Positions 17,061-37,831 of a stretch of 64,000 bases of DNA are shown piece by piece. The notes below the pieces were generated by a model. That model searched no databases and was not told the DNA's origin. It saw only the letters and a list, made by a program, of their open reading frames with translations. The position numbers and the translations under genes were made by a program. How positions within the stretch are numbered: the first letter of the stretch is position 1; the number at the start of each line of letters is the position of its first letter. The stretch comes from Minisyncoccota bacterium (GTDB lineage Bacteria > Patescibacteriota > Minisyncoccia > Minisyncoccales > CG1-02-41-26): the NCBI GenBank assembly GCA_028718785.1, contig JAQULB010000003.1, forward strand, positions 8,788 to 72,787. The letters run 5' to 3'.

Positions 17061-17744
17061 CTACACTTCCGCTATCCTGGCGCTTTGCTCTATCCGCCTG
17101 AATGTCTCTTCCCGTCTGCTGTTGGTTATCTGTGCGTAGATCATGGTGTTCTGGATATTGGTGTGACCGAGGTGGTCCTTGACGAACTCTATGCCCTCCC
17201 CGGCATCCAGCAGATGAGTGGCTATGGAGTGCCTGAGACAGTGGACGGAGTATTTGGGGGCGATCCCTGCTTTCTGTGCGTATCGCTTGAAAAGCTGATG
17301 CGCTCTCTGCCTGCTGATATTGCCCTGTCTGCCTGTGAATAGGGCATCACCGGTGTCCAGTCTCTTTTTGAGATACTTCCTGATGAGCTTTTCGGCGGTC
17401 AAAAAAAGCGGTCGTTCTCCACCGATCCCGCCTTTCAGCCTATGGATGAGTATCCTTTTGTTTTCAAGGTCGACGTGGGAGAGTTTGAGCGAAAGAGCTT
17501 CTGATATTCTGAGTCCGTAAAGATAGGTGAGTCCGAATAACGCCTTGTCTCTGTTGCTTTTAATGCACAAAAAAAGCCTCTCGACTTCTTCTTTTGAGAG
17601 GTATTTTATGGCTGACGGAGTGCAGTTGTATATTTTAATCAAAATGTCTAACTCACAACATAGCAAATTTATCCTCCTTTCCCTTGTGTAAAGCCATTTC
17701 ACAGCATTTCTCATCCGCATAACTTTGACAACAAAATACGTCAT
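17061..17744 (-). CDS. Tyrosine recombinase / phage-integrase-family protein (catalytic domain only)
   Basis: GLRISEALSLKLSHVDL...HCLRHSIATHLLDAGEGIEFVKDHLGHTNIQNTMIYAQI supplies the R, HxxR and Y catalytic residues. Only about 227 aa, with no obvious N-terminal core-binding domain. Confidence 0.75.
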   Translation of the reverse strand: MTYFVVKVMRMRNAVKWLYTRERRINLLCCELDILIKIYNCTPSAIKYLSKEEVERLFLCIKSNRDKALFGLTYLYGLRISEALSLKLSHVDLENKRILIHRLKGGIGGERPLFLTAEKLIRKYLKKRLDTGDALFTGRQGNISRQRAHQLFKRYAQKAGIAPKYSVHCLRHSIATHLLDAGEGIEFVKDHLGHTNIQNTMIYAQITNSRREETFRRIEQSARIAEV

Positions 17745-21536: not shown

Positions 21537-22901
21537 CTAAAAAGGTAGAGAATCAAATAGTGTATTTGTTTTCTTCGTCTCCGTTGTTTTAGGAAATTTC
21601 TGATCATAAGCCCTATATGGAGAATAAGATTTTAGAAGAAGCTCGTTTTCCACTTCCTTCCGTGGTCTTGAATATTTTTCTCTGCATAGCTTTGTGATCT
21701 CTTTTTCATAAGATTTAACCTTTTCAGGCGGTGGCAAAGTTATTGCGTTGAAAGGCTGAGATGTGGCTCCATCAACCATAAGCTTCAGGTAAATATGATG
21801 ATTGGGCAGATTGATTAAGTCGTTCATGTTAAATACAGGATAAAATTCCTTACCCAGTAGTTCTGCATCTTCGATGCTTACTCTGAAAGAGATAACTGTT
21901 CCAATATTGCCAAATATTGCTCCCCTTATTTTTTCGTCAAGCTGGTTAGTGTATTGGTGAGCAAGGGTCATGTGTAGACCGTATTTTCTGGCTTCAGACA
22001 GAACATCAGCAAATGATAAAGTCAGAAAGTTTTGGACTTCATCAACGTATAAATAAAATGATCGCCTCTTTCCTTCTGGTAAATTAGCTCTACTCAAAGC
22101 TGAAAGCCATATCTTGGTTACTATCATTGAACCAAGAAGCGAGCAATTATCCTCACCAATCTTACCTTTAGCTAGGTTGACTATCAGGATTTTGCCTTCG
22201 TCCATGACTTTTCTTAGATCAAAGGTGTTTTCCTTTTGCCCAACGATATTTCTGAGTGGAAAACTCGTTAGGAACTGTCCCATCTTATTTAGGATAGGGG
22301 ATACAGCTTCTGTTTTGAGATAAGCTGAGTATTTCTCGAACTCAGAGAACCAGAACTCTCTTACTTGCTGGTTCTTCACCTTCCCTATAATCTCCCATCG
22401 AAACTCTTTATCAGTCAACAGTTTTGGTATATCCAAGATTGTGCTATTTGGTCGTTCCAGAAGCGTTAAGATAGAGTTTCTTAAGATATGTTCCAGTCTT
22501 GGACCCCAAAACTCAGACCATATCTTTTTGAATACAGAGATTAATCCCGACGCTATGAGGTGATGTTGGTCAGGATGAGGGCTTTCCAAAGGGTTAAAAG
22601 CGATGGGATACTCAACATCTCCGGGGTTGAAATAAATGACATCTTTTATCCTTTTCTTTGGCACGAAATCCAAAACAGCTTCAGTCAGATCGCCATGGGG
22701 GTCAATCAGTGCTAATCCACTACCATCGTTCACGTCAGAAATGACCATGTTTTCAATAAGCGTTGATTTTCCAGTTCCAGTTTTCCCTACGATATAAATA
22801 TGTCCTCTGCGATTCTTTTCCCTGATCCCAAACCTCTTTCTTATATCACGATAGTTGGTGACAGCAAAGAATGTGATTGGATTTTTGTCGTTTCCATTCA
22901 T
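21537..22901 (-). CDS. TraD/VirD4/DUF87-like P-loop ATPase (second copy, divergent from 8921-10636)
   Basis: Walker A HIYIVGKTGTGKSTLI followed by LIDPHGDL, and a Walker B YLYVDEVQNF. Confidence 0.55.
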   Translation of the reverse strand: MNGNDKNPITFFAVTNYRDIRKRFGIREKNRRGHIYIVGKTGTGKSTLIENMVISDVNDGSGLALIDPHGDLTEAVLDFVPKKRIKDVIYFNPGDVEYPIAFNPLESPHPDQHHLIASGLISVFKKIWSEFWGPRLEHILRNSILTLLERPNSTILDIPKLLTDKEFRWEIIGKVKNQQVREFWFSEFEKYSAYLKTEAVSPILNKMGQFLTSFPLRNIVGQKENTFDLRKVMDEGKILIVNLAKGKIGEDNCSLLGSMIVTKIWLSALSRANLPEGKRRSFYLYVDEVQNFLTLSFADVLSEARKYGLHMTLAHQYTNQLDEKIRGAIFGNIGTVISFRVSIEDAELLGKEFYPVFNMNDLINLPNHHIYLKLMVDGATSQPFNAITLPPPEKVKSYEKEITKLCREKYSRPRKEVENELLLKSYSPYRAYDQKFPKTTETKKTNTLFDSLPF

Positions 22902-23074: not shown

Positions 23075-24631
23075 ATGGGAATTATTATGTCAAAAGAAAA
23101 CAATAAAACTGAAGGCTTCGAGAGAACACTTTTTAAGGCGGCGGATAAACTCCGAAAAAATATGGATGCCGCCGAATATAAGCATATCGTGCTTGGGCTT
23201 ATCTTTCTTAAATACATCTCAGATTCGTTTGAGGACTTATACAAAAAATTAAAAACCGGTGAAGGCGACTATCAAGGCGCTGATCCAGAAGACCCCGATG
23301 AATACAAAGCGGAAAATATCTTTTTCGTTCCACACATAGCCCGCTGGTCTTATCTTCATTCCCACGCAAAACTCCCATCAATCGGCAATGACGTTGATAA
23401 TGCGATGGAAGCCATAGAAAAAGAGAACCCATCGCTCAAGGGAATCTTACCGAGAGTATATGCACGACCTAATCTTGATAAAGCCGCTCTTGGTGGACTT
23501 ATTGACTTAGTCGGGAATATTGCGATTGGTGATGAGGCAGCTAAAAGCAAAGACGTTCTCGGTAGGGTATATGAATACTTTCTCGGTGAATTTGCCAATG
23601 CTGAGGGCAAAAAGGGCGGACAATTCTATACGCCAAAGTCAATCGTTCGCATTATGGTAGAGATGATAGAGCCTTACAGTGGTCGTGTATATGATCCATG
23701 CTGTGGCTCTGGCGGCATGTTTATTATGAGTGAGCGATTCGTTGAAAGCCATCAGGGAAAAATTAACGATATTTCTATTTATGGGCAGGAGAGCAACCAG
23801 ACTACTTATCGTCTGTGCCGAATGAATCTTGCTATCCGTGGGATTGATGGATCACAAGTGAAATGGAATACGGAAGGCTCTTTCCTTAATGATACTCATA
23901 AGGACTTAAAAGCAGATTTTATTTTGGCTAATCCGCCGTTTAACGATAGCGATTGGTCGGGAGAACTTCTGCAAAAAGACCCTAGATGGCAATATGGCAT
24001 ACCTCCGGCGGGAAGTGCCAATTTTGCTTGGCTTCAGCACATGATCTATCATCTGTCGCCAAAAGGCGTGATGGCTTGCGTGTTAGCTAACGGTTCGCTT
24101 TCATCTCAGACTAATAACGAAGGGGAGATACGCAGACAGTTTGTTGATAACGATCTAGTGGATTGTATCGTCATGCTCCCAAAACAGCTTTTCTATAATA
24201 CTGGTATACCTGCTTGTATCTGGTTTATCTCCCGCAAGCGCGCAGGCAATGGCGACAGAAAGCGCACTGGTGAAATTCTGTTTATTAATGCCGATGAAGT
24301 TGGTTCTATGGAAGACCGAACCCATAAATTGTTTAATGATGAAGATATACAGAAAGTCGCTGGTACTTATCACGAGTGGAGAACTAAAAATGGGAAGTAT
24401 GAGGATATAAAGGGATTTTGTAAGTCCGTTAAGCTTGAAGAAATACAGAAGCATAATTACATTCTTACTCCGGGGCGATATGTCGGTATAATGGACGAAG
24501 AAGACGATGGCATACCCTTTGAGGAGAAAATAACGGAATTAACCGGGAAACTTAAAGTGCAAGTAACGGAAGAAAAGAGACTAAACGAGAAAATAAAAGA
24601 GAGTCTGGAAAGTATAGGATTTGAGCTTTGA
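23075..24631 (+). CDS. hsdM: Type I restriction-modification system methyltransferase subunit
   Basis: NPPF motif (ILANPPFNDSDW). SAM-binding FYTPKSIVRIMVEMIEP...YDPCCGSGGMF. Size 518 aa. Confidence 0.85.
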   Translation: MGIIMSKENNKTEGFERTLFKAADKLRKNMDAAEYKHIVLGLIFLKYISDSFEDLYKKLKTGEGDYQGADPEDPDEYKAENIFFVPHIARWSYLHSHAKLPSIGNDVDNAMEAIEKENPSLKGILPRVYARPNLDKAALGGLIDLVGNIAIGDEAAKSKDVLGRVYEYFLGEFANAEGKKGGQFYTPKSIVRIMVEMIEPYSGRVYDPCCGSGGMFIMSERFVESHQGKINDISIYGQESNQTTYRLCRMNLAIRGIDGSQVKWNTEGSFLNDTHKDLKADFILANPPFNDSDWSGELLQKDPRWQYGIPPAGSANFAWLQHMIYHLSPKGVMACVLANGSLSSQTNNEGEIRRQFVDNDLVDCIVMLPKQLFYNTGIPACIWFISRKRAGNGDRKRTGEILFINADEVGSMEDRTHKLFNDEDIQKVAGTYHEWRTKNGKYEDIKGFCKSVKLEEIQKHNYILTPGRYVGIMDEEDDGIPFEEKITELTGKLKVQVTEEKRLNEKIKESLESIGFEL

Positions 24632-24668
24632 TTTTGTGGCAAATTTTATTTTGAGGAGTTGAGCGATT

Positions 24669-25016
24669 GTGTTAACTAAAACGAAAAATTCAAAACAAAT
24701 AGAGCATTTGGCATTTAGGCTATCAAGTATATTGATTGAAAAAAGTGAAAACCAACTGGAAGATTACGACTTTTCTTGGCTAGACGTTTTTACCAAAAAA
24801 GGTAAAGAGGACTTCAAAAGCCAGCTATATCAAGCCATATCAAAATCAATAGATACTGGTGATTGGTCTTTTGTGGAAGAGATAATAGATTCTTGGTATG
24901 AAACTGCCGAGATTAAATCAAACAAAAGCCTAATGAGAAGGATCAAAAAAGGTAGCGAAGAAGCAAGGCGAGGAGAATCTAAAAGTTGGGAAGAATTTCA
25001 AAAAGAACTAGAATAG
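24669..25016 (+). CDS. Putative antitoxin partner of the downstream RelE/ParE-like toxin
   Basis: Small acidic ORF overlapping the toxin ORF by 31 bp. No clear DNA-binding motif recognised. Confidence 0.3.
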   Translation: MLTKTKNSKQIEHLAFRLSSILIEKSENQLEDYDFSWLDVFTKKGKEDFKSQLYQAISKSIDTGDWSFVEEIIDSWYETAEIKSNKSLMRRIKKGSEEARRGESKSWEEFQKELE

Positions 25017-25285
25017 AGTTTTCATCTCAAGCACAAAGGGATTGGAAAAAGCTGAAAAAGAAGATCGGGAAAGATGCAGAATCAGACTTTAACAAGTCTA
25101 TTGAGGCTATAGCAAATAATCCGTTAAGCGGAAAACCGCTACAAGAAAACTTATCAGGTCATTATGGGTTCAGATTTGGCGGGCATTATAGGATCGTGTA
25201 TGAAATTCTAGAGGATGATAAAGGAAAATTCGTTTCTATATGTGCGGTTGATGACAGGAAAAACATATACAGGAAGCGTTTATAA
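24986..25285 (+). CDS. RelE/ParE-family type II toxin
   Basis: IEFSSQAQRDWKKLKKKIGK...LSGKPLQENLSGHYGFRFGGHYRIVYEI matches the RelE/ParE consensus (kpL.g.l.g.yrlRvGdYRiiY). The exact start is uncertain. Confidence 0.6.
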   Translation: MGRISKRTRIEFSSQAQRDWKKLKKKIGKDAESDFNKSIEAIANNPLSGKPLQENLSGHYGFRFGGHYRIVYEILEDDKGKFVSICAVDDRKNIYRKRL

Positions 25286-25303
25286 AATTGGGCAAAAATA
25301 ACT

Positions 25304-26563
25304 ATGACATCTAAAAATACACAGCAGATACTGACTGGATGGGAAGAAGCCACTTTGGGGGATTATATTTCTATTAAGCATGGCTTTGCATTTAAGGGAG
25401 AATATTTCTCCGAACAGGAAAATGAAAATGTATTATTAACGCCGGGAAATTTTAATATTGGAGGAGGATTTAAAGCTGATAAATTGAAGTATTATATAGG
25501 CTTGTTTCCAGAAGAATACATTTTGCATGCCGGCGATTTAATAGTTACAATGACTGATCTAAGTAAAGATGGTGATACTCTAGGTTATCCTGCAAAAGTC
25601 CCGCATTATGAAAATAAAAACTTTTTACATAATCAACGAATAGGGCTTGTTCAATTCAAACGCAAGGATCTTGATAGAGACTTTTTATACTATCTGATGT
25701 GTACAAGAAATTACCAAAAAAATATTGTAAATTCTGCATCAGGAAGCACTGTACGGCATACGTCACCCGATAGGATTAAAGAATATAAGTCTTTATTTCC
25801 ATCTTTTCCCGAACAACGAGCTATTGCGTCCGTGCTTTCTGCTTTTGATGATAAGATTGAACTTTTACGGGAGCAGAATAAGACGTTGGAAAGTATCGCC
25901 CAAGCACTATTCAAGCGATGGTTTGTGGATTTTGAGTTCCCTAATGAGCAAGGCAAGCCCTATAAATCAAGCGGTGGCAAAATGATTGACTCTGAATTGG
26001 GAGAAATCCCAGATGGGTGGAAAGTAGGGGGATTGAGGGATATTATAAATATTTATGATTCTAGGCGTATACCATTATCAAGCGAGCAGAGAGCAAAAAG
26101 AAAAGGAAAATATCCATACTATGGGGCTACTGAGGTTATAGATTATATTGATGATTATTTATTTGAAGGCATTTATCTTTTACTTGCCGAAGATGGCTCT
26201 GTTATAGATGAAGAAGGATTTCCTGTTCTGCAATATGTTTTTGGACAGTTTTGGGTCAGTAACCATGCTCATGTTATACAAGGTAAGCAAGACATATCAA
26301 CTGAATATCTTTATCTTCTTTTTAAGCAAACCCCGGTTTCTGGGATTATTACAGGCGCGGTACAATTAAAAATAAACCAAGAAAATCTATTATCACTAGA
26401 AGTTATCATACCAGAAAAGCAAACCTTAAAAGTATTCAATAGTCTTATGGATTCTATTTTCTCTAAGGTTAGAGCTAATATTCTTCAAATTCAGACTCTT
26501 TTTCAACTCCGAGATACTTTATTACCAAAGCTTATGCGTGGTGAAGTGAGAGTGAAGCATTAA
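25304..26563 (+). CDS. hsdS: Type I restriction-modification system specificity subunit (two target-recognition domains)
   Basis: Position between hsdM and hsdR. Repeated conserved spacer-like segments (…LFKRWFVDFEFPNEQG… and …LPKLMRGEV…). Size 419 aa. Confidence 0.75.
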   Translation: MTSKNTQQILTGWEEATLGDYISIKHGFAFKGEYFSEQENENVLLTPGNFNIGGGFKADKLKYYIGLFPEEYILHAGDLIVTMTDLSKDGDTLGYPAKVPHYENKNFLHNQRIGLVQFKRKDLDRDFLYYLMCTRNYQKNIVNSASGSTVRHTSPDRIKEYKSLFPSFPEQRAIASVLSAFDDKIELLREQNKTLESIAQALFKRWFVDFEFPNEQGKPYKSSGGKMIDSELGEIPDGWKVGGLRDIINIYDSRRIPLSSEQRAKRKGKYPYYGATEVIDYIDDYLFEGIYLLLAEDGSVIDEEGFPVLQYVFGQFWVSNHAHVIQGKQDISTEYLYLLFKQTPVSGIITGAVQLKINQENLLSLEVIIPEKQTLKVFNSLMDSIFSKVRANILQIQTLFQLRDTLLPKLMRGEVRVKH

Positions 26564-26573
26564 GGTTTGAATC

Positions 26574-27419
26574 ATGGCAAATATGTCAAATAATGATAAA
26601 ACAAAGCTTGAGGCTCTGTTCGGAATGCGCAGCGGGTATGTCTTGGATTTTTCAGGCAACACTTTCCAAGATTTTATCCATGACAGCACTGGTTTAGATA
26701 TTTTTGATTCGAAGTATAATCATTTTAGTGGTTCTAAGGCAAATAGGCTTCGTGCTTTTTGGCAAAAGGAATCAGATAACATAGTTGGGAAATTAATTGC
26801 AGACCTATTAGAATATTGGAAAACACAAAAGGAAGTAAAAGGTAATGAAATAGAGGAAATTGAGCAAAAGCTTTATGGCGATTGCATAAATATTTCAAAA
26901 AGATTACTCGGTGAAAGACAAGAGTATATCGATCAGCAAAATGTTACCGAAGATGATTTTCTCAATAAGGAATTCCAAGAAATATCTTTAGAGAAACTCG
27001 GTTTAGAAAGTGTATTTACTAATGTATTGAATCAGAGAATGGATGAAATAAAGAGGTGTCTGGGTGCAAAAGCATCTTTGGCTGCGATTTTCCTATGTGG
27101 AAGTATACTTGAAGGTATATTACTGGGTTTTGTGATAAAGAAACCAGAAGAATTCAATCGAGCAATCCTTAGTCCTAAAGATAAAAATGGCAAAGTGTTA
27201 CAATTTCATGAATGGAAGCTAAGTAGTCTTATAGATGTTTCCCATGAAGTAGGTTTACTTGGGGATGATGTAAAGAAGTTTAGTCATGCCCTACGCGAAT
27301 TTAGGAATTATATCCATCCATACCAACAAGCTAGTTCAGGGTTCAATCCTGATGGGCATACTGCCAAAATATGTTGGCAAGTACTCAAGGCTGCGATTAG
27401 CGATTTATCTAAGGTATAA
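26574..27419 (+). CDS. HEPN-like (Abi-type RNase-like) protein embedded between hsdS and hsdR
   Basis: C-terminal HALREFRNYIHPYQQ resembles the HEPN R-x-x-R-N-x-x-x-H motif of Abi_2-like proteins. It sits in the position that anticodon nucleases occupy in prr-type loci. Confidence 0.35.
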   Translation: MANMSNNDKTKLEALFGMRSGYVLDFSGNTFQDFIHDSTGLDIFDSKYNHFSGSKANRLRAFWQKESDNIVGKLIADLLEYWKTQKEVKGNEIEEIEQKLYGDCINISKRLLGERQEYIDQQNVTEDDFLNKEFQEISLEKLGLESVFTNVLNQRMDEIKRCLGAKASLAAIFLCGSILEGILLGFVIKKPEEFNRAILSPKDKNGKVLQFHEWKLSSLIDVSHEVGLLGDDVKKFSHALREFRNYIHPYQQASSGFNPDGHTAKICWQVLKAAISDLSKV

Positions 27420-27425
27420 TCATTT

Positions 27426-30400
27426 ATGACCAAAATATTTGAATCTGACATCGAAAAATTGGTATGCGAACTCCTCGGAGAACAGGGCTACACTTACCTT
27501 TCTCCAGAAGCCCAAGAAGCCGAACGCCAAAGTCTAGGTGATGTTTTGCTATTGAATCGCCTCAAAAATGCTATTGATAACATAAATCCCAAAATACCAC
27601 AAGAAGCGAAAGAACAAGCCCTCCGACAAGTCCGCAATCTCACAACTCAAAACTTGATAGACAATAATGAGTCCTTCCATCGAATGTTCACCGAAGGGGT
27701 AGAGGTTGAGTATATGGGCGAATATGGCATAAAAGGCGATAAAGTTTGGCTGATTGATTATGATAATACTGAGAATAATGAGTTTTTGGTCTGCAATCAG
27801 TTTACAGTCATGGAGAACAACATTACCAAACGCCCTGATGTTGTTTTGTTTATTAATGGTTTGCCACTTGTGGTTATTGAACTAAAGAATCCCGCCGATG
27901 AGAACGCAACCGTACATAAAGCATTTACTCAGCTTCAAAATTATAAAAACGCCATCCCGAGCCTTTTTCATTACAATAGCATTTTAGTTGCTTCTGACGG
28001 CTTTGACGCTACCGCAGGCACGATCTCATCTGATTTCTCAAGGTTCTTGGCTTGGAAATCAAGCGATGGCTCAAAAGAGGACAGCATGACCATTCCACAA
28101 ATTGAAACGCTCATCAAAGGGATGCTGAAAAAAGAGACGTTGCTTGACCTGATCCGTCAATTTATCGTGTTTGAAAAATCCAGAAAAGAGGATCTAGAGA
28201 CAGGGCTAACTTCGGTTGTCTCCATCAAGAAAGTTTCCGCTTATCATCAATATTTCGCAGTTAATAAAGCTGTTAGCTCAACTATCCAATCCACAAGTGA
28301 ATATGGTGACAGAAAAGCAGGTGTAGTCTGGCACACACAGGGAAGCGGAAAATCGCTTTCCATGGTGTTTTATACTGGAAAGGTAGTTTTGGCGCTTAAT
28401 AATCCGACTATCGTTGTAATAACCGACAGGAACGACCTTGATGACCAGCTTTTTGATACTTTTGCCAACTGCAAACAGCTATTAAGGCAGGACCCGGTTC
28501 AGGCGGAAAATAGAGAACACCTGAAAAGCTTATTGAAAGTTGCCGGCGGAGGGATCGTGTTTACCACGATTCAGAAATTCTTTCCTGAGGATGGTTCTAG
28601 TAGTTATGATCTCTTATCAGAAAGAAAGAACATTGTGGTTATCGCCGATGAGGCGCACCGAAGCCAATATGGCTTTGGCGCAAAAACGATCTATGACAAA
28701 AATAATGGTGTAAGGACGACTTATGGATTCGCTAAATACTTGAGAGATGCCCTGCCGAAAGCCTCTTTTATTGGTTTTACAGGCACACCTATCGAGAAAG
28801 AGGACGCTTCCACACCGGCGGTATTTGGCAATTACATTGATATTTACGATGTAGCTAGGGCAGTAGAAGATGGGGCGACTGTTCGCATTTACTATGAATC
28901 AAGGCTTGCTAAAGTCCACCTAAAGCCAGAGGAGAAAGCGAAGCTTGATGAAGAGGTAGAATCTATCACTGAAGGTGAGGAAAGCACAGCTAAAGAGAAA
29001 GCAAAGGCAAAATGGGCGCAACTTGAAGCTATTGTTGGACATAAAGACAGGTTGCGTATTGTTGCTGGTGACATTATAGACCATTTTGAGAAACGACAGG
29101 AAGCCTTTGATGGAAAAGGCATGATCGTCTGTATGAGCCGAAGGATTGCAGTTGAACTGTATCAGGAAATCATCAAGCTAAGACCAGATTGGCACGACAA
29201 GGACAAGAAAAAGGGAGCGATTAAGGTGGTAATGACTTCCGCTTCTTCCGACCCCGAAAGTTGGCAGATGCACAATACTACCAAGCAGGATAGAAAAGAG
29301 ATCGGCGAACGGTTTAAAGACCCTAACGATCCTCTGAAGCTCGTTATTGTCCGTGATATGTGGCTGACTGGATTTGATGTGCCTTGCTTACATACGATGT
29401 ATGTTGATAAGCCCATGCGTGGACACAATTTAATGCAGGCTATCGCTAGGGTTAATCGTGTTTTCAAGGATAAACCGGGCGGACTTGTAGTTGACTATAT
29501 AGGGATTGCGTCAGATTTGAAGATGGCTTTGGCAACTTATGCCGCAAGTGGAGGACAAGGCTCACCGACCCTTGACCAAGAAGAAGCTGTGGCAACAATG
29601 CTTGAGAAATACGAGATTGTCGTTCAGATGTTCGATCAGTTTGATTATACAAAGTATTTTTCAGCGACGACTCAACAGAAGCTCACTATCATTTTAGAAG
29701 CACAGGAATATATTTTAAGCTTAGAAGATGGCAAAAATAGGTTCATAAAGCAGGTCAATCTATTATCCAAAGCATTTGCCCTTTCCGTTCCACATCATAA
29801 AGCGATGGATATTAAAGATGAAATAGGGTTCTTCCAAGCGATAAAAGCCCGATTAATAAAATTTGAAACGACCGGAACTGGCAAATCCGACCAAGATATT
29901 GAAACAGCTATAAGGCAGATTGTGGATAGAGCAGTTGTAACCGAGGGGATCGTTGACATATTTGATGCGGCAGGTATTAAAAAGCCTGATATTTCCATAC
30001 TTTCTGATGAATTTTTGGCAGAGATTAAGGACATGAAGCGAAAGAACATTGCCTTGGAACTTCTGAAAAAGATTCTCAATGATGAGATTAGACTGCGAAT
30101 GAGAAAGAACTTTATCCAAAGTAAAAAGCTTTCAGAAATGCTCGAAAATGCCATAAAAAGGTACCAAAATAATCTTTTAACGACCGCTCAGGTGATCGAA
30201 GAGCTTATAAAGCTGGCTAAGGAAATAAGGGAATCGGACATGCGTTTGCATGAATTGAACCTTTCCGAAGACGAGATCGCATTTTATGACGCTTTATCTA
30301 ATAACGACAGCGCCAAAAAGGTTTTAGGCGATGACGCACTTCGGGATTTAGCAAGGCTTTTGGTCCAAAAAGTGAAGGCGAACACTTCAATAGATTGGAC

Positions 30401-30545
30401 TATAAAAGAAAGCATTCAAGCGAAGCTTCGGGTCATTGTCCGCCGAACACTACGCCAATACGGTTATCCACCGGATCAACAGTTATTAGCTACTGAGAAT
30501 GTGTTGAAACAGGCAGAACTTTTCGCGGATGATTGGAGTGATTAG
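27426..30545 (+). CDS. hsdR: Type I restriction enzyme R subunit (helicase-nuclease)
   Basis: 1039 aa. SF2 motifs HTQGSGKS (Walker A) and [12 protein letters not shown] (DEAH). N-terminal nuclease region. Confidence 0.85.
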
Positions 30546-30664: not shown

Positions 30665-31819
30665 ATGCATAATAATTCACAGACTATAAAGCCTCGAGTT
30701 TTTGTGAGTTCTGTTCTAGAGGGTTTTAAAGAATACCGAGAGGTAGCCCGTCAGTCTATAATTAATATTGGAGGAGAGCCGATACTTGTTAATGAGGACT
30801 TTCCATCGTTAATAAGTTCATCAAGGAATGTTTGCTTGGATGCAGTTGATAGCGCAGATGCTCTTGTTGTGATTGTTGGTGAACGCGGTGGATGGAAAAC
30901 CCCATCAGGAAGATTAGTTATTGAAGAAGAATACGATCGAGCACGTTATAAAAAACTGCCCATACTTGTTTTCATTCAAGATATAAAACGTGAGCCAGAG
31001 GCACAGAGATTTACGAATGAAATATCTGATTACATTGATGGGTTATTCCGGGTTACTTTTCGATCACCAGTAGAACTTAAGGCTGAAATAGAAAAGGCTC
31101 TAAAATCATTATTCCCCGTCTTAAAGGTGAAAGCTATGGATGATCATTTATTGATACAATTTTTAAAAAATCCTTATTCTGTCGCAAATGAAGCAAGCGT
31201 GCGTTTTATTATTGCTCCGGAACGAGATGAAGAGGTTATCGATCCTGTTGTTCTTGGGTCAGAAGATTTTGTCGAAACAATACTTGAGTTAGGGCATTCA
31301 AAGAAAGTCAGAATTTTTGATTATTTAAGACCAAAAAAGCATTGGATTGATGGGCAATCGCTATTTATTCATCAATTTGACCCATCAGGATTAAGAAAAG
31401 AAACTGTTAACGAAGTACGTCTGGAAATCTTAGAATCAGGTTTAATGATCATTGATTCAAATGTTACCTGTCGCGTGATTAGAGGGCAACTACATTCTTT
31501 GTTAGACTCTTGTGTTGTTGCAGAGGAAGATATTAGAGCAGTATTAAATACTTGCTTTCAATTTACAGGTGCTTTGTTTGATTCTATCGATCAGTTTAAA
31601 AGACATAATCGCTTTATGTATAATGCTGCATTAGTGAATATAGGAACTCGTGTATTAGTCAAGGAACCCAAAGAGCAAAATTCCTATTCTCTCAACATGC
31701 CAGGTCATAATCAACCCATTATTGCATTTGATAGTCCACGTTTATTGATACGATCTGATCTTATGCTTCCTAAAAATGAGATAGAAAGAGCGATTGTTAT
31801 TTTTTCACGCAAAATCTAA
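30665..31819 (+). CDS. DUF4062-like N-terminal domain protein (defence-island-type), with a C-terminal domain of unknown function
   Basis: N-terminal RVFVSSVLEGFKEYREVARQSIINIGGEPILVNEDFPS...DALVVIVGERGGWKTPSG fits the DUF4062 pattern (kVFiSSt...Re...i...gh.pv..e.f.a...cD..v.iig.rYG). Confidence 0.4.
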   Translation: MHNNSQTIKPRVFVSSVLEGFKEYREVARQSIINIGGEPILVNEDFPSLISSSRNVCLDAVDSADALVVIVGERGGWKTPSGRLVIEEEYDRARYKKLPILVFIQDIKREPEAQRFTNEISDYIDGLFRVTFRSPVELKAEIEKALKSLFPVLKVKAMDDHLLIQFLKNPYSVANEASVRFIIAPERDEEVIDPVVLGSEDFVETILELGHSKKVRIFDYLRPKKHWIDGQSLFIHQFDPSGLRKETVNEVRLEILESGLMIIDSNVTCRVIRGQLHSLLDSCVVAEEDIRAVLNTCFQFTGALFDSIDQFKRHNRFMYNAALVNIGTRVLVKEPKEQNSYSLNMPGHNQPIIAFDSPRLLIRSDLMLPKNEIERAIVIFSRKI

Positions 31820-31864
31820 GAATCCCATCTGTTTTGAGAACAACCCGGAGGTTATTGAGTCATT

Positions 31865-32572
31865 ATGATGATTAAAGATATTTATCCACCAATTGAAACA
31901 GCTATGGAATTAGAGCCAGAAGAATTGGCTCCTTTTGTGTTAAAAGATTTAGCAGATCAAAGGAGACTTAATCGGCATAATTTTACTTTAGGAAATAGTC
32001 CTGATTTTATCGAATATGCTGGTAATTATCGGGAGGAATTTTGTAAAAGACTTATGGAAGCTTGGATTTGGCTTGAAAAGGAAATGTTTATTGCACCAAT
32101 GCCGGGCGGTGGTGGCACGGATGAATTCTTTATTACTCGCAAAGGTAAAAAGATTCTTGATGAGCAGAATTTTGAATCATATAAAAAAGCGTCATTACTG
32201 CCATCAGAGAATCTTGACCCAATTTTAGTAAGAAAAGTAAAACCATTGTTTATAAGAGGAGACTATGACACCGCAATATTTCAAGCCTTCAAAGAAGTTG
32301 AAATAAGGGTTAGAGATAAAGCAGGATACACAGATAATGAAATAGGCGTTGCTCTTATGAGAAAGGCTTTTAAGCCAGATAATGGACCTCTTGCAGACCA
32401 GTCTTTAGAAGCTAGTGAAAAGGAAGCGATAGTTGCTCTTTTTGCGGGATCTATAGGCAAGTTTAAGAATCCATCAAGTCATAGAGATGTAGAATATACT
32501 GATCCGGGTGAGGTTGTCGATATAATTCATATAGCGAACCAGTTATTACGAATTTGTGATCGCTGTAGATAA
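31865..32572 (+). CDS. Hypothetical protein, possibly HEPN-like (TIGR02391/Ymh-like) at the C-terminus
   Basis: C-terminal ...FAGSIGKFKNPSSHRDVEY is weakly reminiscent of the HEPN RN..H motif (K replaces R). Low certainty. Confidence 0.3.
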   Translation: MMIKDIYPPIETAMELEPEELAPFVLKDLADQRRLNRHNFTLGNSPDFIEYAGNYREEFCKRLMEAWIWLEKEMFIAPMPGGGGTDEFFITRKGKKILDEQNFESYKKASLLPSENLDPILVRKVKPLFIRGDYDTAIFQAFKEVEIRVRDKAGYTDNEIGVALMRKAFKPDNGPLADQSLEASEKEAIVALFAGSIGKFKNPSSHRDVEYTDPGEVVDIIHIANQLLRICDRCR

Positions 32573-32652: not shown

Positions 32653-34788
32653 ATGCGGAAATCCGAAAAAATGTGTACTAATGAGATAATCAATGCTATT
32701 GAAGATTTGGCGAAGGAACCAGGATTTATATATTCCTTGGCAATAATATTGCAGCGAGACCAATTTTTAGACCCCGAAGAAGTAGCTGATATCAACTGGC
32801 ATGAACGGCTAATTTTCCAAGAGTTATCTTTTTTGGTTGGTCTAATGGTTAAAAATAAAATAGATTATTCTGTAATACCAACAGAAAACACTTTAACTAA
32901 TCAAATCAATAGGACTTATGAATTATTTCAGAAGTTGCATGAAAATCATTTGGCAATATTTGCGGATAAGCTTTCGAAGAAATATAAACAAAGTGTAGAG
33001 GATCAGAATGCTGAGGATAATTATAAAGATTTCATGGGAAACGGGGAATTAATGGCAGAGCCAATTTTTTATGGTGATTCTGGTGCCTATGATTTTCAAT
33101 ATTTGGAATTTGCACAGAAGAAATATAAAAATGACGAAACATGGATATATAAAAATAAAGGTATTACACTATCCATAGTGTCCAATATATATGCAACGTT
33201 AAAGAAACTTAGCGAAGAGAGGTGGCAGAATTTCCAAATACCGGAAAAATTTGAGGAACTCTGCAAGTCATCTCTATCAGTTTTTTGCTTTAACCAAAAA
33301 GATTTGGAATATTTTGATGTTGATGCTGTTAAAAATTTCATCAAAGCTTTTTCGGTAATTCCTGGTACTGTTAATCAAAATCTGAATTCTGTTGGGATGT
33401 ATAATGCTATTGATTCTCATCCTATAGTTACTCTTGCAGAGAATCTTTATTTTTTACCTGTGGGATTCAATTTTTCGCGATCCATCTACGAAAGTCCTTT
33501 TTACTGGATGAGTGACGATGATCTATATAGAGACACTGCTTTTAATAATAGAGGCGAGTCAGCTGAAAATATTGTCTATGAAATTTTGGAAGATATCTTT
33601 GGGAAGGAAAATGTCTACAAAGAAGTAAAGGTTTGTAGAAACAGGCAAGATTTAACAGATATTGACGTATTGGCCATAGCTGGCAATAAAGCCGTTATTG
33701 TGCAGGCGAAATCAAAAAAGCTTACGGAGCTATCTAAAAAGGGAGATGAGGCAAGGTTAAGAGCAGACTTCAAAGAAGCTGTTCAAAAGGCTTATAATCA
33801 AGGTTTGATCTGTCGTTCAGCAATTATAGACAAGAAAAATGATTTAGTAACAGAAGATGGTAAGAAACTTTATCTCAGTGAATTTATTGACGATGCCTAT
33901 ATTATCTGTATAACACTGGATCACTACCCAGCAATAACTCATCAATCGGATATTTATCTAGAGAAACAGCCACAGGATCCATACCCTTTAGCAATGAGTA
34001 TTTTTGATTTAGACATTATTGCTTTTTACTTAAAAGATCCTTTTGATTTTTTATACTATATAAGGCAAAGAGTTGCGTTAAGCTCTTATTATGAAGCGAA
34101 TTCGGAATTAGTGTTGTTAGGGAGTCATCTCAGACAAAAGCTATTTCCAAATCCTGATGTAGATAGGGAAGCTTTGGACGATGGATTTGCTCAACTAATA
34201 GATGCAAATTTTCCAGCTATGCGTGGTTATCAGCCAAAAACAAGTGCGGTAGAGAAATTACATCATCAATGGAAGAATGAGAAGTTTGAAAAACTTATTA
34301 ACCAGATAAAGGCAATAAAACAGCCGGGTCTTACAGATGCCCTGTTTTTCTTATATGATTTGGCTGGTAAGGGAGCTGATGATCTTATCTCCTGGATCGA
34401 AAAAACCATAGATAAAACCATACAAGATGGACGAATGCATTCTTTATCTATGGGTTTTGAAAACGGGAAAAGTGGAGTTTCTTTTATCTGTTTGCCAAAT
34501 TTTTCGGAAAAAATAAAAACACAGTTGGTGAGTTTTGCTTTAGCTAAAAAATATAAAACAAAGGCTGATATGTGGCTTGGTCTATGCTCTATTGCAGGGA
34601 GTTCTAATATTGTCGATGCTGTAACTTTTAACAATCAACCATGGGTAGAGGATAGCAACCTAGAAGAAATTTCTAAAATTGCTCTAAAAGCTGGTGTAAG
34701 AGCTGATTTGGATATTAAAAAAATCGGCAGAAATGATCCATGTATTTGTGGAAGCGGAAAAAAATTCAAGAAATGTTGCGGTAGATGA
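32653..34788 (+). CDS. Large protein with a PD-(D/E)xK / NERD-like nuclease motif and a C-terminal SEC-C zinc-binding motif
   Basis: ESAENIVYEILEDIF...LTDIDVLAIAGNKAVIVQAKSKK carries an E...D...QxK nuclease-like signature. C-terminal NDPCICGSGKKFKKCCGR matches the SEC-C motif. Confidence 0.45.
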   Translation: MRKSEKMCTNEIINAIEDLAKEPGFIYSLAIILQRDQFLDPEEVADINWHERLIFQELSFLVGLMVKNKIDYSVIPTENTLTNQINRTYELFQKLHENHLAIFADKLSKKYKQSVEDQNAEDNYKDFMGNGELMAEPIFYGDSGAYDFQYLEFAQKKYKNDETWIYKNKGITLSIVSNIYATLKKLSEERWQNFQIPEKFEELCKSSLSVFCFNQKDLEYFDVDAVKNFIKAFSVIPGTVNQNLNSVGMYNAIDSHPIVTLAENLYFLPVGFNFSRSIYESPFYWMSDDDLYRDTAFNNRGESAENIVYEILEDIFGKENVYKEVKVCRNRQDLTDIDVLAIAGNKAVIVQAKSKKLTELSKKGDEARLRADFKEAVQKAYNQGLICRSAIIDKKNDLVTEDGKKLYLSEFIDDAYIICITLDHYPAITHQSDIYLEKQPQDPYPLAMSIFDLDIIAFYLKDPFDFLYYIRQRVALSSYYEANSELVLLGSHLRQKLFPNPDVDREALDDGFAQLIDANFPAMRGYQPKTSAVEKLHHQWKNEKFEKLINQIKAIKQPGLTDALFFLYDLAGKGADDLISWIEKTIDKTIQDGRMHSLSMGFENGKSGVSFICLPNFSEKIKTQLVSFALAKKYKTKADMWLGLCSIAGSSNIVDAVTFNNQPWVEDSNLEEISKIALKAGVRADLDIKKIGRNDPCICGSGKKFKKCCGR

Positions 34789-36127: not shown

Positions 36128-37330
36128 ATGACTACAAACGTAAACAATCCCTTTTCTGCGAGTGCTTCGGTACTTGGTTATATGTATCAAATTCGGTATG
36201 CCTTACTGGAAAGTTTAAAACGATTACGAAAGAGTGAGGAATTCACCGTTTCTATTGAGACGTTAGACGATGTCGCTTTCGAGCCAGAAGGGGAACCAAT
36301 CGAATTATTGCAAACGAAACATCATATTAATCAATCCGCTGACTTAACGGACGCATCCCTAGACTTGTGGAAGACAATTAGGATATGGTGTGAAGGCATA
36401 ATTAATAATACTATTCCAAACGATGCCTTGTTTTTTCTGATCACCACAGCACAAGCGGCTGGAGGCAGTGCTGCTTTCTACCTCAAAACAGGTGAACCAC
36501 AGGACGCAGATAAAGCTCTTGAGCGATTAGTATCCACTGCTGAATCATCGACAAGTTATTCTTTACATCCTGCCTTTACCGCGTTTAAAAGATTAAATTA
36601 TGAGCAAAGAAAACAACTGGTTCAAAATGTGATTTTGGTTGATTGTGCCCCAACAATCACAGACCTTGATGTTGCGCTCAAAGAAGCGGTGTTTGGCTTT
36701 ACTGACAAACAATTCCTTGATTCATTTCTTCAGAGATTTGAGGGTTGGTGGTATCGTCGGTCAATAAAGCATTTAGCTGATGATCAAACTCAGCCAATAC
36801 TCAGCGAAGAATTAGAAGCCGAGGGGTCCCGCCTGCGAGAACAGTTCAAATTGGATTCCTTACCTATTGACGATGACATCATGTCTGCCAGCGTAGACGC
36901 TTCTGGATATGAAAATAAGGTATTTGTTCAACAGCTACGCCTTATTGAAATTGGCAACCCACGTATCCTACATGCAATTCGGAATTACTTCAGAGCCTTT
37001 GAGCAAAGATCACGATGGATACGAGAAGACCTTATTCTCGTTGGGGAACTTGATCGCTACGAAGACAAATTGGTGGAGGAATGGGAAATCTACTTTGAGC
37101 AAATGCGAGATGAAATTGGAGACGACGCAACAGAGCAGACCAAGAAAGAAGCAGCCCAAGCTCTATATAAATGGGTGGAGACCGGTTGCCATCATACAAT
37201 CCGACAAGGCGTTACAGAGGCGGCTATTTCACGCGGTTCTTATCAGATACTTTCTGACTGTCAAAAAGTCGGTTGGCATCTCAACTTTGCTGAACGCATA
37301 CGGCAGATTTTAGAGAGTAAGGAGACCTGA
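36128..37330 (+). CDS. Lamassu/ABC-3C effector-like protein (LmuA/DdmA-like, possible Cap4-type nuclease domain)
   Basis: First gene of a tightly coupled trio. N-terminal GYMYQIRYALLESL and ETLDDVAFEPEGEPIELLQTKHH are reminiscent of DUF4297/Cap4-type nuclease N-termini. Its stop TGA is 3 bp before the next ATG. Confidence 0.45.
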   Translation: MTTNVNNPFSASASVLGYMYQIRYALLESLKRLRKSEEFTVSIETLDDVAFEPEGEPIELLQTKHHINQSADLTDASLDLWKTIRIWCEGIINNTIPNDALFFLITTAQAAGGSAAFYLKTGEPQDADKALERLVSTAESSTSYSLHPAFTAFKRLNYEQRKQLVQNVILVDCAPTITDLDVALKEAVFGFTDKQFLDSFLQRFEGWWYRRSIKHLADDQTQPILSEELEAEGSRLREQFKLDSLPIDDDIMSASVDASGYENKVFVQQLRLIEIGNPRILHAIRNYFRAFEQRSRWIREDLILVGELDRYEDKLVEEWEIYFEQMRDEIGDDATEQTKKEAAQALYKWVETGCHHTIRQGVTEAAISRGSYQILSDCQKVGWHLNFAERIRQILESKET

Positions 37331-37333
37331 TTT

Positions 37334-37831
37334 ATGAAGCCTTGGTCCGAACGTTCCATTGAGGAAGCCAACCTTTTGAATCCAGCCTTCTGTTGCGCAG
37401 CTCTGGCAATGTCAATTGCTGGATATTCCGGTGTTAATGATGCAGGTATGCCATATCCATTGACCTTTATGGTTTTGCCAATCGTTCTTCACAAACAAAC
37501 ACGAGAAAGTCTTCCGCCATCTACGAGGACATCGCTTGCGGTTTGGATGCAAAATAACGCCGATGCCAAGGTTCTTTATGCGGAAAGATTGTTGTCACTA
37601 AAACCTTATACTCGAGAAGCAATCCAATTCGGACTGCTTTATGATTGGATTGCGCTACGTCATGGTTGGTTAGTGCAAACTACCTTTGAGGAGTCTATAT
37701 CAGCTCGAATACTTCAAAATCTCGATAATGAAGCAAAGGATTGTGTGTCTCGTGCAAAGCTTGTCGGGAAATGGTTTGCTTTGGCAGGATCGGCTCAAAC
37801 TGTAATGAATTTGTGGGGAATCCGTATATGA
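37334..37831 (+). CDS. Small middle component (LmuC/DdmB-like) of the trio
   Basis: 165-aa ORF wedged between the effector and ATPase genes. Its stop overlaps the next start (ATGA). Confidence 0.4.
   Translation: MKPWSERSIEEANLLNPAFCCAALAMSIAGYSGVNDAGMPYPLTFMVLPIVLHKQTRESLPPSTRTSLAVWMQNNADAKVLYAERLLSLKPYTREAIQFGLLYDWIALRHGWLVQTTFEESISARILQNLDNEAKDCVSRAKLVGKWFALAGSAQTVMNLWGIRI

Follow-up and report, generated by a model that had tools for sequence, protein, structure and literature searches.

A 281-residue protein encoded within a type I restriction-modification (RM) operon of a Minisyncoccota bacterium is probably, judging from sequence comparison and structural modeling, a single-chain sensor-effector ribonuclease (RNase) of the abortive-infection type that the operon carries as cargo. 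The operon lies in a 64,000-nt stretch of DNA (GCA_028718785.1, JAQULB010000003.1, positions 8,788-72,787 of the forward strand), hereafter called the window. The protein joins an N-terminal helical module to a C-terminal domain predicted to be a divergent HEPN domain of the DUF4145 type. It belongs to a large and highly conserved family that is absent from PADLOC v2, and no experimental characterization of this family was found in the literature searched. The window protein itself has no match in PADLOC, NCBIfam or PHROGs, and the identical entry on record is a hypothetical protein from a 'Candidatus Pacebacteria' metagenome-assembled genome.

HEPN genes in RM operons, in at least 16 clades, were described in 2013 in a purely computational survey, together with the hypothesis that they act by analogy with PrrC (Anantharaman, Makarova, Burroughs, Koonin, Aravind; PMC3710099). 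An earlier sequence-only reading of the window had suggested a new kind of RM-guarded RNase effector. The claim of novelty fails, since RM-embedded HEPN genes, the PrrC analogy and the fusion of an AbiJ-NTD1 module to DUF4145 had all been published in that survey. The 281-residue protein is an uncharacterized member of the RM-linked HEPN systems predicted at that time and would not surprise a specialist; likewise, the window is a Patescibacteria defense island with a layered operon of RM, predicted RNase and toxin-antitoxin genes, ordinary in kind and introducing no new principle. The protein matters because it could put to the test the idea, predicted in 2013, that HEPN proteins embedded in RM operons serve as suicidal RNases of a second line of defense. 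It is also a route to what its promiscuous N-terminal module senses, a module found in some 2,500 representative clusters with no fewer than eight types of effector. Were the trigger of the module found, a whole set of single-protein defense candidates could be annotated together.

The operon is compact, lies entirely on the + strand at 23075-30545, and was delineated from an open reading frame (ORF) map and family scans. These agree exactly with the gene order and coordinates given by the sequence-only reading, namely hsdM, a small ORF plus toxin, hsdS, the 281-residue ORF and hsdR. The features are as follows.

23075-24631, + strand: hsdM, type I RM methyltransferase, 518 residues (N6_Mtase PF02384, 1.4e-114; HsdM_N, 5.9e-24; PADLOC MTase_I, 3.4e-210)
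24669-25016, + strand: putative antitoxin, 115 residues, GTG start (sub-threshold DUF6247 match, 4.6e-4)
24986-25285, + strand: RelE/ParE-superfamily toxin, 99 residues, TTG start with GAGGAG ~10 nt upstream (PF05016, 1.7e-13; TIGR02385; PHROG RelE-like toxin, 3.3e-15)
25304-26563, + strand: hsdS, specificity subunit, 419 residues, two target-recognition domains (PF01420 Methylase_S, 8.9e-32, in two stretches; PADLOC Specificity_I, 2.5e-103)
26574-27419, + strand: 281-residue two-domain protein, N-terminal module plus predicted DUF4145-type HEPN domain (3,447 homologs; AlphaFold2 model)
26574-26909, + strand: N-terminal module of this protein, residues 1-112, probable AbiJ-NTD1 (signature GYVLxF ... 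SKANRLRxFW)
27006-27419, + strand: C-terminal HEPN-like domain, residues ~145-281 (DUF4145 match, domain model, Foldseek)
27294-27317, + strand: predicted active-site motif REFRNYIH, comprising R241, R244, N245 and H248 (translation checked; invariant in 36 homologs)
27426-30545, + strand: hsdR, restriction/translocase subunit, 1039 residues (HSDR_N, SWI2_SNF2, T1R_D3-like and T1RH-like_C, 6.4e-132; TIGR00348, 2.2e-195)

The type I RM set is complete, with HsdM, HsdS with both target-recognition domains, and HsdR with nuclease, SF2 motor and C-terminal domain. Only 10 nt separate hsdS from the 281-residue ORF, and 6 nt separate the latter from hsdR. A promoter and terminator scan, whose overall site counts are at chance level, places its best promoter-like site just 5' of hsdM and shows no terminator-like site between the genes.

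The C-terminal HEPN-like domain

AlphaFold2 modeling of the full 281-residue protein predicts two all-helical domains connected by a disordered linker at residues 115-122 (pLDDT 85.9), and the C-terminal domain modeled by itself reaches a pLDDT of 90.8 and a pTM of 0.85. The window protein matches Pfam DUF4145 (PF13643) over residues 158-246 with an E-value of 1.1e-3; the score of 19.5 bits falls short of the 23.1 set as the gathering threshold. When 36 family members were scanned one by one, 32 had a DUF4145 match with E < 0.05 at the corresponding positions (best 2.2e-5); no other Pfam family recurred among the 36, and none matched Abi_C. One relative, P0040, has a precomputed PF13643 match. 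Because the window score is sub-threshold while 32 of the 36 relatives match, the family is best described, at the sequence level, as a peripheral, divergent DUF4145 relative rather than a scored member. DUF4145 belongs to the HEPN superfamily and was noted in the 2013 survey as occurring 'in operon with R-M' (PMC3710099).

A Foldseek search of the PDB with the C-terminal domain model returns HEPN structures as about 12 of its 15 top matches (TM 0.45-0.60), including the sacsin HEPN domain, HepT/MntA toxins, TM0613, HI0074, AF0298, SO_3166 and MtlR. Individually, none of these matches is significant (best E 0.43, TM ~0.5). The full-length model gives only noise in the same database (all E > 0.1) because the orientation of the two domains in the model is arbitrary, a problem remedied by modeling the C-terminal domain alone. 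A profile search against PDB sequences yields no significant match to a solved relative. Its one marginal hit aligns residues 205-260, around the RNxIH motif, with the N-terminal part of human FAM118B (PDB 9r3e/9r0p; E 0.05-0.3) and was judged spurious, since what aligns is a brief amphipathic stretch from the beginning of a SIR2-like protein.

The predicted active site lies in the stretch ALREFRNYIHPYQQ (residues 239-252) and takes the form R241-x2-R244-N245-x2-H248, or more fully R241-(E/D)242-F-R244-N245-Y-I-H248, an R-x6-H arrangement. The sequence-only reading had recognized a HEPN-like motif here, and its type stands; the spacing it gave, R-x-x-RN-x-x-x-H, does not, as two residues separate N from H, nor does its placement at the end of the protein, as 29 further residues follow the stretch. 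Across 36 homologs that are 53-88% identical to the window protein, L240, R241, F243, R244, N245, I247, H248 and P249 are invariant, and the motif is also retained in relatives with another N-terminal domain. By its sequence conservation, the motif appears to be no chance match. In the domain model, helix 3 ends at R241, and R244, N245 and H248 lie in the loop toward helix 4, while the invariant Glu180, within the segment GSxLEG, falls in helix 2 (residues 168-189). These positions of the motif and of the helix-2 acidic residue agree with the published HEPN criteria (PMC3710099). The C-terminal domain is accordingly predicted, from sequence and model together, to be a divergent DUF4145-type HEPN domain. 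The assignment made by the sequence-only reading is borne out in the DUF4145 matches, the motif placement and the top fold matches, and the structure prediction proposed as its check suggests a HEPN-like fold.

An experimental parallel is RAZR (PD-T7-4), whose DUF4145 domain is an RNase by experiment and requires conserved R and H residues (PMC13017515). RAZR acts by abortive infection and, like the 281-residue protein, combines a small N-terminal sensor or assembly domain with a divergent C-terminal DUF4145 HEPN domain in one chain. In contrast, the RAZR N-terminus is a Cys4 zinc ribbon, whereas the window protein has an unrelated helical module and no zinc ribbon in its sequence. The RAZR residues R146 and H154 form an R-x7-H motif rather than R-x6-H, and RAZR is not described as RM-embedded. 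Lacking both a zinc finger and a PADLOC PD-T7-4 match, the window protein is not RAZR.

The N-terminal module and its fusion partners

The two halves of the protein behave as independent units. In tblastn searches against plasmids, residues 1-115 and 133-281 match different proteins, with residues 1-115 matching proteins whose C-termini are Abi_C or Mrr_cat (E 4e-14 to 3e-17). Among them are proteins labeled 'abortive infection family', which end in an Abi_C domain (AbiJ-type HEPN), and one Leptospira 'restriction endonuclease' with Mrr_cat; none of the plasmid proteins sharing the module has a PADLOC, NCBIfam or PHROGs match. A representative of the Abi_C group, WP_015060232.1 from Aeromonas, Pseudomonas and Klebsiella plasmids, shares 38% identity with residues 1-115 of the window protein (E 4e-14). 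Proteins of this group resemble the window protein further in length (268-276 residues) and in having a C-terminal HEPN domain with an R-x6-H motif, and one of them, in locus L088, adjoins an Eco57I-type RM pair. They differ in the motif itself, which reads VRNNxSLAH rather than the RxFRNYIHP of the 281-residue family, and by sequence the window protein is not an Abi_C member.

Within the 36 homologs, the invariant residues of the module are G21, V23, S54, K55, A56, R58 and R60. A profile of the domain searched against 1.84 billion representatives retrieves 2,523 proteins (representative clusters) at E <= 1e-3, of which 1,628 remain at E <= 1e-10. The module occupies residues 1-112 in nearly all 2,523 clusters, in proteins of up to 666 residues. 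Among the best 150 profile matches, 98 have at least 90 residues after the module and were typed with a C-terminal-domain hidden Markov model (HMM) and diagnostic motifs, giving approximate counts. About 22 of these 98 carry a TIR-like domain, 17 the DUF4145-like HEPN domain of the present family, 10 an AbiJ-type HEPN domain, 6 an Mrr nuclease, 4 another HEPN-like domain, 2 an HKD nuclease and 1 a deaminase, with 36 unclassified. The fusions to Abi_C, Mrr_cat, TIR_2 and DUF4145-like domains are backed by HMM matches, those to Abi_C and TIR_2 being confirmed by precomputed Pfam annotation; those to HKD, Ymh-like and deaminase domains come from motif inspection only. Sequence comparison thus identifies the N-terminal ~112 residues as a promiscuous module common to many candidate defense effectors.

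Some members show more elaborate arrangements. In two of them (P0127 and P0128), the module is present twice in tandem ahead of a TIR-like domain. Others, of 654-666 residues, combine a TIR-like domain with a transmembrane segment and a region that by eye resembles formylglycine-generating enzyme.

The converse is also seen. The linker and C-terminal domain, at 47-68% identity, occur behind an unrelated N-terminal domain of ~120 residues on IMG/VR contigs predicted to be viral or proviral (L094-L109; for example L095, 5620-6492). This sister domain is marked by the signature ...EYRSGPxLVxFFNxLGFNDSYGQGFPSRW... and has no Pfam match. None of 19 viral-contig loci of this architecture, a biased sample, has Hsd genes nearby. 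A 779-residue TPR-repeat protein (L110, 4051-6390) ends in the same HEPN-like domain, with the motif LRDFRNYIHP and a DUF4145 match at 1.3e-4, and in Paraburkholderia the domain stands behind a third type of N-terminus.

The module probably corresponds to AbiJ-NTD1, which was described as a helical N-terminal domain of ~100-140 residues fused to AbiJ, DUF4145 and Ymh HEPN domains, restriction endonuclease (REase), HKD and other conflict effectors, and whose fusion to DUF4145 is explicitly listed (PMC3710099). The match was made through the list of fusion partners, set against the published description of the module, whose prototype is Bcep1808_2091 (gi 134296193). The published architecture and the window protein agree in having a helical module of ~110-140 residues found with varied effectors, a DUF4145-type HEPN domain, an occurrence in RM operons and a proposed role as a suicidal RNase behind RM (PMC3710099). 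AbiJ-NTD2, of similar description, may be an alternative identity. The 'DpnII/MboI-NTD + DUF4145' architecture of the same survey was considered and dropped in favor of AbiJ-NTD1 because the partners observed here (AbiJ-HEPN, Mrr, HKD and Ymh-like) fit the NTD1 list. Pfam has no NTD1 model, and its AbiJ_NTD3 and AbiJ_NTD4 models match neither the window protein nor its 36 relatives. No later characterization of an AbiJ-NTD1-type module was found in the literature searched, and for AbiJ itself a mechanism has not been established (PMC13064643).

Genomic distribution, RM linkage and mode of action

The 281-residue family comprises 3,447 homologs (clusters at 90% identity). In a scan of one genome per species, homologs occur in 333 of 185,579 species genomes, spanning many bacterial phyla and some archaea; the INPHARED phage genomes contain none. 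Loci were analyzed for the best-scoring 80 of these 333, which are not a random sample. In 31 of the 80, the gene is clustered with type I RM genes on the same strand; the other 49 (~61%) have no RM genes, a figure that is an upper estimate for stand-alone forms because some of the loci are short contigs. RM-linked placement recurs across phyla. RM-linked loci mostly run M-S-X-(0 to 2 other cargo genes)-R, three being M-X-S. Among 16 loci with hsdS immediately upstream, the gap is -4 to +9 nt in 15, and six of these overlap by ATGA or GTGA. The close relatives, at 95% and 88% identity to the window locus, retain hsdS-ORF-hsdR, with differing cargo between hsdM and hsdS. The conservation check proposed by the sequence-only reading therefore comes out positively, both in these close relatives and in the 31 species-level loci.

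Linkage is nevertheless loose at the level of the family. Mean identity is 0.49 within RM-linked members, 0.50 within stand-alone members and 0.49 between them, and the two forms are interleaved, with RM status clustering modestly (nearest-neighbor test, p 0.009). Co-divergence with HsdR gives a rho of 0.39 (p 0.005) for the 281-residue ORF against 0.88 for HsdM. The HsdR proteins of all linked loci belong to the family of the window HsdR. Among loci L002-L080, both the hsdM-hsdS and the hsdS-hsdR slots hold varied cargo, including RhuM, Fic/DOC, DarT, DUF6119, NYN RNase, reverse transcriptase, patatin, deaminase, AbiJ_NTD3 and AAA_21/DUF4435 proteins. The only recurrent neighbors in the 80 loci are Hsd genes and one cluster of ~340 residues, probably of the RhuM family; no conserved partner or antitoxin-like gene appears in these neighborhoods, stand-alone ones included. 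Taken together, the linkage, packing, interleaving, co-divergence and shared-slot data identify the gene as mobile cargo that strongly favors the position following hsdS, and not a co-evolving core subunit.

In the prr locus, prrC, which encodes a latent nuclease that cleaves the anticodon of tRNA-Lys once the RM partner is inhibited, lies between hsdS and hsdR. The sequence-only reading had assigned the 281-residue ORF to this slot and had seen no ABC ATPase domain in it; the ORF indeed occupies the interval, and scans of Pfam, NCBIfam and PADLOC reveal no ATPase domain. The resemblance to PrrC (EcoprrI) extends to a C-terminal HEPN-type RNase domain and a proposed role in second-line suicidal defense. 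However, the window protein has a 112-residue helical module in place of the N-terminal ABC/AAA_13 (Rad50-like) NTPase of PrrC and RloC, its HEPN family is DUF4145-like with most relatives not RM-linked, and the window HsdR is distant from that of the type IC enzyme EcoR124I (2e-37, N-terminal half only). Because it lacks an ATPase, the protein is not a member of the PrrC/RloC family.

The analysis shows directly how the protein is built from domains, that its catalytic-type residues are conserved, that its domains are modular, and what genomic associations its gene has. From these findings we infer RNase activity, a trigger, dimerization and a suicidal outcome, which could be connected in the following way. 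The HEPN domain would be a metal-independent endoribonuclease that is silent by default. Upon infection, the N-terminal module would detect a cue (a phage protein or nucleic acid, for example), freeing or assembling the HEPN domain, possibly as a dimer, the form in which HEPN domains usually work. The RNase would then cleave tRNA, rRNA or mRNA of the cell or the phage and halt translation, so that the infected cell yields no phage. Residence in a type I RM operon would provide co-expression and co-transfer with a first-line, DNA-targeting defense without making the RNase strictly dependent on the RM enzyme. Co-residence suggests that the operon may form a two-layer cassette of DNA restriction followed by RNA cleavage. 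An autonomous sensor-effector is favored because the N-terminal module is common to many unrelated effectors.

The hsdS junction, often a 4-nt overlap, is tighter than hitch-hiking needs and may reflect a physical connection with the RM complex. This counts against an autonomous effector, as do the sampling limits of the locus counts given above. The corresponding alternative is a guard of the PrrC kind, in which the protein would be bound and silenced by the HsdM2S or HsdR complex and freed to kill the cell once RM is disabled by an anti-restriction protein of the phage (Ocr, ArdA or Stp-like). Such a hypothesis has been put forward for RM-linked HEPN genes generally (PMC3710099), and it would account for the shared prrC slot, the 31 of 80 homologs in type I RM operons with Hsd genes as recurrent neighbors, and the hsdS spacing, which suggests translational coupling with HsdS. 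The single family of linked HsdR proteins and the modest but significant HsdR co-divergence point the same way. Yet the ~61% of homologs without RM neighbors, interleaved with the linked ones, make an obligate inhibitor complex unlikely, and the 'RM-guarded' label of the sequence-only reading is not supported by these data or by the gap between the HsdR co-divergence of the ORF and that of HsdM. The protein also has no ATPase or nucleotide-sensing domain of the PrrC kind, its N-terminal domain recurs in TIR, Mrr, HKD and AbiJ effectors, and unrelated cargo (RhuM, Fic, DarT, DUF6119) fills the same operon interval. In addition, four contexts of proteins joining the module to other effectors contain no type I RM genes, one being near type II RM and some of the contigs being too short to inform. 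Overall, a guard of this kind is unlikely. A bolder version, which we regard as a long shot, has the module itself devoted to sensing either the state of type I RM or anti-restriction proteins, perhaps through binding to HsdS/HsdM or to DNA mimics (Ocr, ArdA), and makes the protein an ATPase-free minimal analog of PrrC. If true, the ~2,500 TIR, Mrr, HKD and HEPN relatives would form a broad, unrecognized class of 'RM guards', and the tight, often overlapping hsdS junction across phyla would reflect stoichiometric co-assembly.

The remaining alternatives dispute catalysis, purpose or fold. The sub-threshold DUF4145 score of the window protein weighs against the proposed RNase and would suit a non-catalytic HEPN-like accessory of RM, with an RNA-binding, nucleotide-binding or regulatory role such as control of hsdR expression or restriction alleviation. 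Some HEPN families are indeed non-catalytic binding domains, and the R-to-H spacing here is unusual, whether read as R244-x3-H248 or R241-x6-H248 (PMC3710099 for the families). Such a role is nonetheless very unlikely, given that R241, R244, N245, H248 and E180 are invariant across phyla and N-terminal architectures, as in catalytic HEPN domains, that in RAZR the DUF4145 domain has been proven to act as an RNase and needs its R and H residues (PMC13017515), and that the module is elsewhere fused to clear enzymatic effectors. The RNase could instead serve mainly to stabilize the mobile RM island by post-segregational killing, as the RelE pair may, rather than to resist phage. HEPN toxins are known from toxin-antitoxin systems (PMC3710099), and the low-GC island around the operon begins at an integrase, a TrwB-like ATPase adjoins the operon, and the operon itself includes a toxin-antitoxin pair. 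This addiction role has a slim chance, however, as the family has no conserved antitoxin-like partner gene, and a sensor plus effector build, common to TIR, Mrr and HKD proteins, is typical of defense proteins. Finally, the lack of any fold match with E below 0.1 and of a significant PDB sequence match also counts against the proposed reading and could mean a helical protein outside the HEPN superfamily, with a coincidental RN..H motif and weak DUF4145 matches. That would be highly surprising in view of DUF4145 being the sole Pfam family matched, by 32 of 36 members, of the HEPN structures that make up about 12 of the 15 top Foldseek matches, and of the motif and acidic residue lying on the expected helices.

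The RelE-type pair and the surrounding island

The 115-residue ORF and the toxin gene overlap by 31 nt and together qualify, by sequence, as a type II toxin-antitoxin pair of the RelE/ParE superfamily, with the antitoxin putative. The toxin scores 51.3 bits against PF05016 (cut-off 23) and 39.4 against TIGR02385 RelE_StbE (cut-off 27.9). The sequence-only description of a RelE/ParE-like toxin is right as to superfamily; within it, the nearest solved relatives are of the RelE/YoeB type (Rv2866, YoeB and RelE) and not gyrase-poisoning ParE. Both genes occur in L085 and L087, the relatives at 95% identity. In L081-L084, at 88% identity, ~225 bp have been lost in frame, so that the antitoxin runs directly into the final 24 residues of the toxin (L081, 4329-4736, versus window 24669-25285). 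The fusion product has 135 residues, the first 110 of them 96% identical to the 115-residue ORF, with the junction ...SKSWEEF followed by LEDEKGKFVSVCAIDDRKNIYRKRL. This looks like decay of the toxin with the antitoxin kept. In the same 88%-identity relatives, a YhcG/DUF1016 nuclease gene lies between hsdM and the toxin remnant. Presence of the pair at 95% identity and of a remnant at 88% indicates that it is ancestral to this small clade and that the toxin decayed in one branch. No homolog of either component occurs in the 80 distant loci. The two genes are local cargo, exchangeable and unconnected with the HEPN gene.

The RM operon lies within a low-GC island (window 17061-39783), in which GC content drops from ~48% to ~35% at about 17.5 kb and rises again at about 36.5 kb. 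Other features of the island are listed below.

17061-17744, - strand: tyrosine integrase, at the island start
21537-22901, - strand: TrwB/HerA-like P-loop ATPase, divergent from hsdM (PADLOC mad8, 1.2e-18)
36128-37330: CTD7/Cap4-nuclease effector of an ABC-3C system
37334-37831: MC3 of the ABC-3C system
37741-39783: DUF3732 protein of the ABC-3C system

The TrwB/HerA-like ATPase is kept beside hsdM in L081, L082 and L084 and may be either an RM partner or part of a conjugative element. The hsdM product also matches PADLOC mad2 (1.2e-51), far below its type I methyltransferase score.

Directly 3' of hsdR, at window 30665-32572, a DUF4062 gene (384 residues) is followed by a HEPN-family gene of the Hypoth_Ymh/TIGR02391 type (235 residues), placing two different HEPN genes within 5 kb of the island. 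The pair is kept in the 95%-identity relatives (L085, 7655-9559). The Ymh gene has the motif KNPSSH, in which Lys apparently stands in place of the Arg of the Hypoth_Ymh family. Downstream of Ymh, the window encodes a NERD-like plus SEC-C protein of 711 residues (32653-34788). The 95%-identity relatives have in its place a 1202-residue protein (L085, 9610-13218) with no Pfam match, and the site is another swap point of the island. Toward the far end of the island, the DUF3732 protein at 37741-39783 is presumably the ABC ATPase of a complete ABC-3C system.

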